Below, one piece after another: positions 1-3,000 of a DNA stretch of 10,146 nucleotides. A program made the position numbers. The stretch comes from a virus (taxonomy: Duplodnaviria > Heunggongvirae > Uroviricota > Caudoviricetes). The number at the start of each line of letters is the position of its first letter. The first letter of the stretch is position 1. The stretch covers positions 1-10,146 of IMG/VR virus record IMGVR_UViG_2541047850_000007; one strand, written 5' to 3'.

Positions 1-3000
1 ATGAGCAGGGCAATTCATAGACTTAGCGACACTCTTTTACGAAAATTAAGCGGATCACCAACCACAAAAAACACCTTTTTTAATGATGGTGGCAACCTTA
101 GCGTAAGGCATTCAACCAATGGCCTGTTAACCTGGTATTTCACTTACAGGGCCGGAACAGGCAGGAAGGTAGCCCCTGAACGTCTGAGGCTGGGAAATTA
201 TCCAGATTTGAGCCTGAAAGCAGCCAGGGAAAAAGCGTCGCAGTGTCGCGCCTGGCTTGCTGAGGGTAAAAATCCACGCCATGAGCTTAATCACACCGTA
301 CAGGAAGCGTTATCACCTGTTACGGTTAAGGAAGCGCTCACTTACTGGCTTGAATCGTACGCGAAGGAAAAGCGCACAGATTACGAATCTCTGAAAAGCC
401 GGATCAATACACACATAATCAGCCATATTGGTGCTATGCCGCTGGAAAAATGCGAGCTACGCCACTGGCTGACCTGTTTTGATCAGCTTGCTATGCGTAA
501 TCCGGTATCAGCAGGATTTTTGTTACAGGTATGCAAGCAGGCGCTTAAGTACTGCCGCAAACGACGCTACGCAATTACCAACGTTCTAGATGATATGGTT
601 GTAGGTGATGTTGGGAAAAAAGCAGAAATAAGCGAGCGCGTACTAACAAACAAGGAGCTTGGGGAATTACTACGCGCCCTGGATGAAAAAATTTACACAC
701 CGTACTACAGCGCCCTGATTCGCCTCCTGATTGTCTTCGGATGCCGTACCACTGAGCTAAGACGCTCTGAGGTCCAGGAATGGGATTTTAAAGAAATGCT
801 CTGGACTGTGCCGAAAGAACACAGCAAAACGAAGGTAGCAATATTCAGGCCAATACCGGAAGCGATCTTGCCGTTCGTAACGAAGCTGGTGGAGCAGAAC
901 CGACACACGGGCTTATTACTCGGAGAACTGAAAGGGCAATCATCTGTATCAGAGTACGGAAGAACGGCACACAGACGCATTAATCAAGCCCCCTGGACGT
1001 TGCACGACATCCGGCACACGTTTACAACGATGCTGAACGATTTAGGCGTGGATCCTCATGTAGTGGAGCAGCTAACCGCGCACCAGTTGCCAGGAATGCA
1101 ACGAGTCTATAATCACTCCCGTTATCTCGATGCAAAACGTGACGCTCTTAATCTATGGGTTGAGCGTCTCGAGCTTCTCCAGAACAATGATGAAAAAATC
1201 GTTGTTATTACCCCGCGAATTTACTCCCAAAATTCTTGACAAATTACGGCTGTTTTTCTTGCGAAAAATGGCCCTCTAAAATAAATCGTCGAATATCGGC
1301 AAATATCGACGATTTATATGTGTCAAGTATTGAAAAAATTTGAAATGTCTTCTTCTTAGTTCTTATTCTCTGTTTCTTGATTGTTCCAACACCTGATGGT
1401 TTATCTATTTGTTTTTAATGAGGTAATTCAGGTGTCATGCCAAATAACGACATTTTTTGTTGCGTCGCTTAAAAACTCGTGACACGATTTTAAACACTAA
1501 CGAGCTTCTACGAACCTTAGCGAACAAAGCCTTTAGCATGGTTGTGTTTTTAATTTAAGAGGTGAAAAAGAATCTAAGTAATATCCGATCTCATATATCT
1601 ACAGCTAAGAGAAAAGTTTATATACGTAATTTTTATGTAGGTTTTTGTATGCGTGAAATAAATGAAGATCGCGTAATCCGCGAAAAAGAATGCAGAGAGC
1701 TAACAGGCGTCAGCCGTACTACACGCTACGAACTGGAGAAGAAAGGGGGCTTTCCGTCACGTCTTAATCTGGGCGGTCGTTCTGTAGGGTGGCTGCTGTC
1801 CGAGGTTATGGAATGGGTTAAAAGCCGGGATCGCATTAATTCAGGTAAGGCAGTGTAAAGGGGAGCATATGACACATAAAACAAAGGCGACCGGGGGCGG
1901 TCGCCAATGGGAAAACACTAAACATAAGCCCGAACATCATAGCGATTTGCTGGCTGGTGGGCAAATCCTGAGCGGTCCTGCAATTACAGGAACTACGGCA
2001 TTGTCGCGGTTAGGTTGTGCTCAACTTTTTTTCACCTCTATATCGCAAGCGCGCCGTAATAAATCGCCTTTATCGCTTCCGCAAAGATCCTTTTTCTCGA
2101 AGCATGATTTTAAGAGAAAGGCGACGACAATTAATAAAACCGCACAGAGTTTCCAATTTATAAATTTTGACATCTTTTACCCCTATGATTGTCGCCATCG
2201 TTCTTCATGTTATGACGTGATTAATGATTACTCGGATTCACTGGCCTTGCGCCGCTGGCGATATTCAACTTCTCGTTTTAATGCCGCAGTAACAAATTGC
2301 CCCGTACTTTCTCCAGGCATTTTTACCGCCTCAACATTGTTCATAACTTCATGCGGAACCCTTGCCGCAACGGTTTGTGATTTTGCGTTTACTGCTTTTG
2401 TCGCCATGTTGTGTACCCCTCATAAAAAACAAATGCAGTATGCAGGAAAAAAAATAAGTGTTCAACACTTGACGTGTTCAACACCTGAGTTTAAATTGGT
2501 GTTCAACACCTTGTTGGCGCAAGGTGCAGAAACGACGAAACCCGGCAGTGAGCTAACACTAACCGGGCTTCTAACCACCAACGATAGAAAGCGTATCGAG
2601 GTAGCTATGTTAAATCATACCACACACCCGCAAGGGCGGGATTCGCACAACCTGAATAAATACATCTGGCGTTTTATCGCCCTGAGCACGGCACAACCGC
2701 GCGTGATTACCATTGAGGCCACCAGCGAACAGGAAGCACGCCAGCAATCTCCGGCTGGCTGCGTGATGGTATTCGCCGCCCGTATTCGTCAAGGGGTGTG
2801 CCATGCCTGATATGTCAAATTACCAGTACCTGATTAATCCGCATTTTAACTGTGAGCATGATATTGCTAAAAAAGTTTATTCCGCTGCGGATGGGGCTAC
2901 TGACAATATATCAATGGGTATTGCGTCAATTGGTAGCCTGATGTGGTATGCGTCAGAAAATAAGGAATATGACGAAAAGGCCATGCGCATTGATATGGGT

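Follow-up and report, generated by a model that had tools for sequence, protein, structure and literature searches.

An open reading frame between alpA and an Icd-like gene in an EcCICFT073-like satellite probably corresponds to the eta frame of phage P4 and runs antisense to a predicted YlcI/YnfO-family operon

The DNA analysed here, referred to as the window, comprises positions 1 to 10,146 of the IMG/VR virus record IMGVR_UViG_2541047850_000007 (Caudoviricetes; 10,146 nucleotides, nt), which, judged from its sequence, is an EcCICFT073-like phage-inducible chromosomal island (PICI) of Escherichia coli. DNA similar to parts of its interval 1560-2900 occurs in about 1,400 of 5,426 complete E. 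coli genomes. This interval contains alpA, which encodes an AlpA/Vis-family regulator, and a gene for an Icd-like protein of 67 amino acids (aa), and the two are connected by a plus-strand open reading frame (ORF) of 313 aa (1869-2810). A preliminary description of the window had reported this long ORF with a strong Shine-Dalgarno sequence and had judged it probably non-coding. Both the ORF and the sequence AAGGGGAG 3 nt upstream of it are present. The ATG (1869-1871) lies 10 nt past the alpA stop codon (1856-1858), AAGGGGAG occupies 1858-1865 with its first base being the last base of that stop codon, and no plus-strand terminator is predicted after alpA. Further downstream, the long frame crosses, in order, the terminator of a minus-strand transcript, a minus-strand YlcI/YnfO-family gene (called the RHH gene below, after the ribbon-helix-helix label of the preliminary description), three palindromes and the Icd-like gene (2607-2810), with which it has both frame and stop codon in common. 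All of these features, described earlier as lying within the frame, were located (Table 1). In addition, a minus-strand ORF of 50 aa, named sp50, lies in a slot between the RHH gene and the terminator.

A composition rich in Ser, Thr and Cys had been described for the translated long ORF, and this was borne out. In residues 1-246, upstream of the nested Icd-like gene, Thr, Ser and Cys account for 11.8%, 8.9% and 3.3%, compared with 5.5%, 5.5% and 1.1% in the long genes of the element, and this part of the product is also Phe-rich and Glu-poor. The stop-free stretch is also too long for chance, as had been supposed. When both minus-strand proteins were held fixed and the three non-coding segments were dinucleotide-shuffled, the probability of finding no plus-strand stop was 1.0 for sp50, 0.36 for the RHH gene, 0.149 for 1869-2020, 0.37 for 2174-2227 and 0.022 for 2408-2606, and the product for the window frame was about 4e-4. 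Read in the same antisense register, the other genes of the element contain 0.030 stops per codon.

Conservation of the frame in related elements, which the preliminary description had proposed as a check, was then assessed. Related loci (numbered with the prefix L) were fetched with the Icd-like protein as anchor; species-representative genomes supplied 14 of them and viral contigs 80. The YlcI/YnfO protein alignment was too divergent to seed the locus scan, and the Icd-like alignment was used in its place. Eight further loci were added from E. coli genomes and assemblies, and clustering at 97% identity gave 72 clusters. The open run reaches at least 280 codons in 58 of the 72 clusters and at least 200 in 70 of them, with a median of 335, whereas the median longest runs of the five other frames over the same interval are 50-98 codons. 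Within the 900 nt upstream of the Icd-like gene, 316 stops were counted in the Icd frame of the 72 clusters, as against 1218 and 1223 in the other two plus frames. Most of the 316 fall in about 15 clusters where another plus frame is nearly stop-free; in these, an indel has shifted the frame. The frame is open across three length variants of the YlcI/YnfO gene (59, 65 and 101 aa), whether the slot holds sp50, p62 or p75 or is empty. The DNA that separates the Chi octamer at 1953-1960 from the minus-strand gene is non-homologous among the window, L001 and L002, and L002 has a YlcI/YnfO gene of 101 aa, not 59 aa; the frames still measure 313, 304 and 348 codons, respectively. In L007, the frame extends over 653 codons and across two tandem YlcI/YnfO modules. 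Long ORFs were likewise found in Rahnella (L012, 351 aa), Intestinirhabdus (L019, 333 aa), an Enterobacterales metagenome-assembled genome (L020, 411 aa), two further loci (L104, 372 aa; L106, 349 aa) and EcCICFT073 (L109, 428 aa). In L020, the frame spans about 730 nt over which the minus strand holds just two ORFs, both short and unsupported (79 and 59 aa).

The spacing and the starts of the genes follow the same frame. From the RHH ATG to the Icd-like ATG runs a spacer without minus-strand coding; it measures 190, 193, 196, 199 or 205 nt in 40 clusters, all with the long ORF fused to the Icd-like gene, and 188, 197 or 198 nt in 8 clusters, none of which is fused. The long ORF is unfused in 13 of the 72 clusters, and in the six with a 197-nt spacer it stops 19 nt before the Icd-like ATG, which fits selection for translation up to the gene and not for a fusion protein; an ORF that ends there would still bring ribosomes to the Icd-like gene. 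The slot gene begins 39, 45, 57, 60 or 114 nt past the YlcI/YnfO stop and is therefore always in the RHH frame, as the YlcI/YnfO gene and sp50 are in the window. Hence all the minus-strand genes stand in one register to the plus frame, with third codon positions opposite third positions. Many related clusters have TAAAGGGGAG or TAGGGGGAG followed by an ATG 8-11 nt past the alpA stop. In L009, L012, L019 and L020, the long-ORF start overlaps the upstream gene by 4-17 nt, with GGAGG or AGGAG, and in L104 and L106 it does so by 11 and 23 nt. These comparisons show that the open frame and its register are conserved. The earlier judgement that the frame is probably non-coding is thus not supported, in view of its openness in 58 of the 72 clusters, in EcCICFT073 and in other genera, its persistence through non-homologous cassettes, the frame-preserving indels, the overlapping starts in other genera and a layout that agrees, position by position, with the experimentally studied vis-eta/kil of phage P4.

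In the P4 genome (NC_001609), the AlpA-family gene vis (9030-8764) is followed by a 214-codon ORF (8812-8168), which overlaps vis by 49 nt and has kil as its final 65 codons; kil is followed by small genes and the gene for the alpha primase. The window has the same succession of an AlpA-family gene, a long ORF within which a gene of about 65 aa is nested, with frame and stop in common, small genes and a primase gene. The Icd-like protein matches NF033153 (E 1.5e-19) and phrog_1743 (E 5e-24), and P4 Kil belongs to the same two families (NF033153, E 1.6e-21, 76 bits against a cut-off of 25; phrog_1743, E 2e-21), which shows that the nested genes are homologous. This homology is based on the shared NCBIfam and PHROG models: hhalign aligned the Icd-like protein with P4 Kil only weakly (E 0.015), and tblastn of the Icd-like protein against phage genomes reached one phage, which was not P4. 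By sequence, then, the window combines a nested Icd-like gene in common frame and with a common stop with a long ORF that starts at an AlpA/Vis gene. In both systems, moreover, the long ORF begins upstream of an internal promoter-like site and beside or overlapping the alpA homologue.

The nested P4 genes eta and kil are reportedly the subject of Forti et al. (1999, J Bacteriol 181:5225). According to PMC10111431, which summarises Forti et al., a promoter inside eta gives rise to early-terminating transcripts, and Kil is translated upon occasional read-through. Full-length Eta is made only from the upstream late promoter, with its translation coupled to the alpA homologue, and this translation averts termination, allowing the late promoter to read through (PMC10111431). 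The job proposed for the long ORF of the window is the same, namely translation that keeps upstream-initiated transcripts from termination. We therefore consider it probable, though by no means settled, that the long ORF is an eta-like translated read-through ORF which takes in the YlcI/YnfO-sp50 operon, and that the nested Icd-like gene is the counterpart of kil. In the best reading of the comparative data, selection would keep the long ORF open and translated without keeping the sequence of residues 1-246; the Ser/Thr/Cys low complexity and the overlap with other features fit an ORF selected for translation and not for its product. A role of Rho in this scheme, drawn by analogy with P4, is less certain than the eta-like translated ORF.

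The two systems also differ. Nothing is annotated opposite eta in the P4 record, whereas the long ORF of the window is antisense to a divergent operon of the YlcI/YnfO gene and the slot gene, that is, to about 110 codons of real genes. No description of an eta-like frame antisense to a protein operon was found in the searchable literature. Furthermore, residues 15-163 of P4 Eta match phrog_6928, phrog_995 and phrog_821, whereas the extension in the window matches none of them, so that no homology to the N-terminal part of Eta was detected. The only family matches of the long ORF are the Icd-like C-terminal families; among these, phrog_6196 matches from residue 228, upstream of the Icd-like ATG (residue 247).

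Several observations weigh against an eta-like translated ORF. The open run falls short of 280 codons in 14 of the 72 clusters, and the counts overstate the statistics because the loci are related and do not count independently. The open frame of Bro-type relatives begins about 140 nt past the upstream gene, without a clear ATG and Shine-Dalgarno sequence. The N-terminal 246 residues have no family match in Pfam, NCBIfam, PHROGs or PADLOC, and their conservation is, on the aligned sequences, explained by DNA features, namely the terminator, Chi and the antisense genes: the recurring motif KTKA..GRQ at the long-ORF start is the reverse complement of the terminator read in frame, and the recurring motif AGGQ is the Chi octamer read in frame. 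The proposed comparison of codon usage with neighbouring genes gave an ambiguous answer, since the N-terminal residues score -0.13 to +0.04 per codon, which places them between off-frames and real genes, whereas the accepted genes of the element score 0.12-0.39. In a substitution test, stop-creating variants in the window background numbered 8 against 13 expected, which is a mild depletion from a test in which indel projection gave artefacts; none of the 8 is an in-frame stop in its own locus. P4 eta holds the CI/seqA immunity RNA, and the C4 and isrK models of Rfam detect relatives of CI and seqA (PMC10111431), whereas neither model matched the window at E up to 1. Finally, AlpA of Pseudomonas is a processive antiterminator (PMC7969949), and if antitermination by AlpA applies here, ribosomes might not be needed.

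Several of these points would be explained if the long frame were untranslated and its openness a by-product of ancestry, of a low-stop wobble-to-wobble register and of conserved non-coding DNA, with alpA, sp50, the YlcI/YnfO gene and the 67-aa Icd-like gene as the only real genes. The relatedness of the loci, the weak codon-usage signature and the mild depletion in the substitution test all agree with this explanation. Moreover, sp50 cannot create plus-strand stops because it has no Tyr, His or Gln, the RHH gene by itself is free of plus-strand stops with the appreciable chance given above, and E. coli K-12 ylcI, which lies outside any satellite, has no stop in the same register either. This K-12 gene was the whole of the lambdoid ylcI/ynfO control, tblastn of the RHH protein against phage genomes having given no match, and the control is uninformative within the gene itself. 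Around it, however, the open run is just 90 codons. An 'at-risk dicodon' count is circular, the genes having been picked from within open frames, and serves only to show about 0.9 expected stops per RHH gene. The by-product explanation is difficult to reconcile with the three non-coding segments, which alone give a probability of about 1e-3 in the window, or with the survival of the frame through non-homologous cassette replacement and through the sparsely occupied stretch of L020. It also leaves aside that spacer indels come in threes, that another frame is open where the Icd-relative frame is lost, and that starts overlap the upstream stop with a Shine-Dalgarno sequence in several genera. 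We regard it as unlikely.

Alternatively, the long ORF could be a functional long isoform of the Icd-like/Kil protein, with an N-terminal extension whose sequence matters for regulation, localisation or toxicity control. The exact 313-aa protein has been deposited in NCBI from E. coli as 'Icd-like protein' by the Prokaryotic Genome Annotation Pipeline (PGAP), and P4 Eta upstream of Kil does have recognisable domains (the three PHROG matches named above), both of which speak for a protein with a function of its own. The extension in the window, however, matches no family and is non-homologous between cassette types, and its similarity tracks DNA-level features. The unfused clusters, including the six in which the ORF ends shortly before the Icd-like ATG, are also difficult to reconcile with a long isoform, and transposon insertions would be polar on the nested and downstream genes as well. 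A sequence-dependent isoform is thus improbable, and the eta-like translated ORF remains the preferred explanation.

On the minus strand, the preliminary description had postulated about 320 nt of transcript between the RHH gene and a terminator near 1900. The stretch from the RHH stop to the terminator measures 322 nt and is probably transcribed. The predicted terminator consists of a stem-loop of 8 pairs (1905-1886) with the tail TTTGTTTTAT, and terminators occur at the same place in L019 and L104 with different stem sequences. Because the YlcI/YnfO gene and sp50 are not separated by any predicted terminator, the two are probably co-transcribed on one transcript that ends at 1905-1886. A promoter-like site on the minus strand at 1964-1936 was rejected, as its -10 hexamer is not kept in relatives. 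The suggestion that a small protein might be encoded in this stretch fits sp50, but not the example given for it, a 42-aa frame at 2070-2198, which is present in the window and, among six other sp50-type loci, only in L008 (listing threshold, 38 aa).

Comparison of these loci shows that sp50 is conserved. The sequence ATAGGrGTAAAAGATG around its start was kept in 6 of 6 aligned loci, and start, Shine-Dalgarno sequence and the exact length of 50 codons were kept in 5 of 6 loci at 83-92% DNA identity; the first half of the predicted protein stays hydrophobic through its substitutions. A word-indexed protein search found one homologue, and four more came from an exhaustive profile search of 1.84 billion representatives, the family comprising five clusters (at 50% identity) of 47-53 aa. 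All members have Phe19, Ser23, Cys24, Cys31, Asp37, Arg40 and Cys43. The predicted protein is composed of an N-terminal hydrophobic helix, an invariant Ser-Cys, two more invariant Cys and a short C-terminal helix; correspondingly, an AlphaFold2 model of low confidence (predicted local distance difference test score, 67) has helices at 3-26 and 40-49 with a loop between them. Homologues at 36-53% identity keep the helix and the three Cys and occupy the same slot, and the distant members in L104 and L106 do so in distant satellites, where a YlcI/YnfO or CopG-like gene lies upstream of them. Searches of Pfam (E up to 1), NCBIfam, PHROGs and PADLOC gave no match, and PDB sequences gave only chance hits to transmembrane helices. 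On this evidence, sp50 is a new tiny family. A Hok/Gef-type toxin or a known defence protein was dropped as an identification, since there was no Pfam match at E up to 1 and none in PADLOC.

The invariant Ser-Cys after the helix, present in 7 of 7 members, suggests a lipoprotein signal. Position -2 is Lys or Arg in 6 members and Ile in 1, and since Lys or Arg is atypical for a lipobox ([LVI][ASTVI][GAS]C) at this position, a single-pass membrane peptide is equally possible. Two further points count against sp50 as a protein-coding gene: the variable columns fall 20/15/12 on codon positions 1/2/3, with no third-position excess, and gene callers almost never report it. Cor, Llp and the lambda Rex/Sie-type exclusion genes are small phage lipoproteins or membrane peptides expressed together with a repressor. 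Like them, sp50 is tiny, has a signal-like or transmembrane-like helix and lies in a variable slot just downstream of a repressor-like gene; unlike them, it has an atypical lipobox, and no sequence or family similarity links it to them. An exclusion, surface, envelope or membrane function expressed with the repressor is accordingly a guess that we offer with low confidence. Among relatives, the slot is occupied by phrog_21027 proteins (59-65 aa), a family of 69-75 aa or sp50, or is empty (for example, in L034, L040, L073 and L088). A type II toxin-antitoxin pair was rejected, because neither protein matches toxin families of PADLOC or Pfam and the slot is empty in several clusters; the variable or empty slot makes sp50 look like accessory cargo carried with a repressor and not like half of such a pair. 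The phrog_21027 slot proteins are basic and contain the motif ERFAPCxFALExFLKE (L001 3411-3599, L002 3414-3593, L007 3365-3592, L109 6243-6431), and the 69-75-aa proteins, found at slot loci including L083, contain the motif KFALEDFV; the two families may be related.

It is very improbable that the 322 nt act as RNA, either as a structured 3' untranslated region (UTR) or small RNA (sRNA) or as an antisense partner of the alpA read-through transcript: the UTR (1906-2020) is better conserved than sp50 (16 variable columns in its first 75 nt compared with 47 of 153 in the ORF) and folds somewhat better than shuffles (z = -2.8, terminator included), and the whole minus transcript is complementary to the plus read-through RNA, but Chi and the terminator explain part of this conservation, and the ORF, helix and three Cys kept in the slot by distant sp50 homologues would not be needed for a function in RNA only. 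Scanning the whole window with Rfam 15 at E up to 1 yielded only a chance miRNA hit elsewhere, and no known sRNA, C4 or isrK.

Further analysis concerned the RHH gene and its surroundings. Its product matches NF041551 (E 2.2e-16; 59.6 bits against a cut-off of 30) and phrog_949 (E 1.3e-21) and thus belongs to the YlcI/YnfO family (DUF3950), and the homologue in L008 carries PF13132. For the ribbon-helix-helix label, no such family was found in Pfam at E up to 1, and a sequence comparison with the PDB gave no relative. The GTGTTCAACAC palindrome occurs in three exact copies, at 2458, 2474 and 2499, where 0.13 are expected; they flank and overlap a rightward promoter-like site, which agrees with the consensus at 9 of 12 positions; such sites are no more numerous in the region than in shuffles. 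The YlcI/YnfO gene is divergent from the replication operon, as it is in EcCICFT073 (L109 6474-6853). Its product is the best candidate for a protein that binds the palindromes and represses the promoter-like site.

The leader that immediately precedes the Icd-like ATG hardly varies between loci with differing flanking genes and is predicted to form three hairpins (fold z = -2.3). It had no match in Rfam and could be an RNA-level control element in place of P4 seqA/CI. The Icd-like family takes its name from the immI region of phage P1 (c4 RNA, icd, ant), where icd is a small cell-division inhibitor gene. P1 icd stands at the head of an operon, and its expression is controlled upstream of its start; it is not known to be nested in a long upstream ORF. 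P1 immI has the c4 RNA, whereas the Rfam scan found no c4-like RNA in the window.

Table 1 Features of the window. Positions are those of the whole stretch; strand is given as + or -.
Feature	Position	Strand	Basis or remark
Integrase gene	1-1239	+	
alpA, AlpA/Vis-family regulator gene	1649-1858	+	PF05930 Phage_AlpA, E 1.8e-17
Long ORF, 313 aa, putative eta-like read-through frame	1869-2810	+	last 67 codons are the Icd-like gene
Predicted terminator of the minus-strand RHH-sp50 transcript	1876-1905	-	stem-loop 1905-1886, then T-tract
Putative 3' untranslated part of the minus-strand transcript	1906-2020	-	conservation, fold
Chi octamer GCTGGTGG	1953-1960	+	left edge of exchangeable slot
sp50, 50-aa ORF	2021-2173	-	conserved frame
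Shine-Dalgarno sequence of sp50, AGGGG	2180-2184	-	6 nt 5' of sp50 ATG
YlcI/YnfO-family gene, 59 aa (RHH gene)	2228-2407	-	NF041551, phrog_949
Three GTGTTCAACAC palindromes, candidate operators	2458-2509		exact 11-bp copies
Promoter-like site TTGACG-17-TAAATT, rightward	2469-2497	+	consensus match only
Leader before the Icd-like ATG	2519-2606	+	within the long ORF; highly conserved nucleotides
Icd-like gene, 67 aa, kil homologue by family	2607-2810	+	NF033153, phrog_1743
106-aa gene; DUF4222 gene	downstream of Icd-like gene	+	
Primase gene	3411-5243	+	followed by genes for single-stranded DNA-binding protein (SSB), capsid and small terminase subunit, all +
All Chi octamers	885, 1953, 4922, 5802, 6277, 8147	+	
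All Chi octamers	2719, 4239, 6136	-	

Chi octamers (GCTGGTGG) are frequent in the window, with 9 copies compared with 0.35 expected, and in 462 kb of related-locus representatives (L001-L102), with 466 copies compared with about 14 expected. The density in related loci is roughly 4-5 times that of the E. coli chromosome. The copy at 1953-1960 is invariant across differing cassettes and marks the left edge of the exchangeable slot, and in 61 of the 72 clusters the long ORF includes one or more Chi sites of this orientation. Bro-type relatives have two tandem minus-strand terminators (L005 2298-2325 and 2423-2448) and a second Chi between the Bro-N gene and the slot (Chi in L005 at 2281-2288 and 2508-2515), and the long plus frame spans all of these features. 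In L004, one open frame of 614 codons (2208-4052) includes two Icd-like segments, and tandem Icd-like domains also occur in L003 (3358-3819), which suggests duplication or recombination between elements at the locus. PGAP calls on the long frame vary between genomes: 313-aa, 104-aa or 67-aa forms are intact in some, and pseudogene pieces labelled 'Icd-like protein, missing C-terminus' or 'ash family protein' are annotated elsewhere (L001 3310-3640, L004 2208-2523 and 2973-3830, L006 3156-3473).

The arrangement in the window can be compared with that of EcCICFT073. There, too, int and alpA are followed by a minus-strand slot gene and a YlcI/YnfO gene and then by the Icd-like, DUF4222, primase, SSB and capsid genes. 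A plus-strand ORF of 428 aa extends from 52 nt past alpA to the Icd-like stop, and the slot encodes a 62-aa phrog_21027 protein where the window has sp50. AlpA of EcCICFT073 is an activator of its own promoter and of a reporter fusion to ORF3, which lies downstream, and its overexpression induces replication (PMC6092414). The global repressor of this Gram-negative PICI has been reported as unclear, AlpA being described as an activator (PMC6092414), and no discussion of the long ORF or of the minus-strand operon was found in the searchable part of PMC6092414.

Taken together, two overlapping units on opposite strands lie between alpA and the Icd-like gene and probably belong to different regulatory states. 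In the quiescent state, a weak promoter in the palindrome region would drive the minus-strand operon of the YlcI/YnfO gene (2407-2228) and sp50 (2173-2021), which would end at the terminator 1905-1886 and so shield alpA, and the YlcI/YnfO protein would bind the GTGTTCAACAC palindromes and repress the rightward site at 2469-2497. In the induced state, with AlpA induced by a helper, transcripts from the alpA promoter, which AlpA would activate, would continue antisense to this operon into the Icd-like, DUF4222 and primase genes. The plus RNA is C-rich over 2000-2400, with a GC skew down to -0.33, and ribosomes starting at the ATG at 1869 would keep Rho off about 740 nt of otherwise untranslated, C-rich RNA, as reported for P4 eta. 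The late transcript would in this way bypass the repressed internal promoter, so that the Icd-like and replication genes would be expressed despite the repressor, and the convergent plus-strand transcription would probably also damp the repressor operon.

Should the long ORF be no more than a P4-like eta, the advance would be moderate. P4 eta is a tested precedent that indicates why translation itself could be the function of an ORF. Long antisense overlapping ORFs in bacteria are usually dismissed as shadows, and the comparative data presented here argue that one of them is selected. Annotation pipelines treat this long frame inconsistently and miss sp50 almost everywhere. EcCICFT073, which serves as the experimental model of Gram-negative PICIs, shares this architecture, and the YlcI/YnfO protein is a candidate for the global repressor left unclear in PMC6092414. 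More tentatively, and as a speculation about the whole family, Enterobacterales satellites may keep a frame of more than 300 codons, antisense to a complete repressor operon, open for no other purpose than to give ribosomes a track. The wobble-to-wobble register would let cassettes swap beneath it, both strands would be translated in opposite states, translation of the track would let AlpA-driven transcripts override the repressor, and the YlcI/YnfO protein would be the missing global repressor of Gram-negative PICIs.

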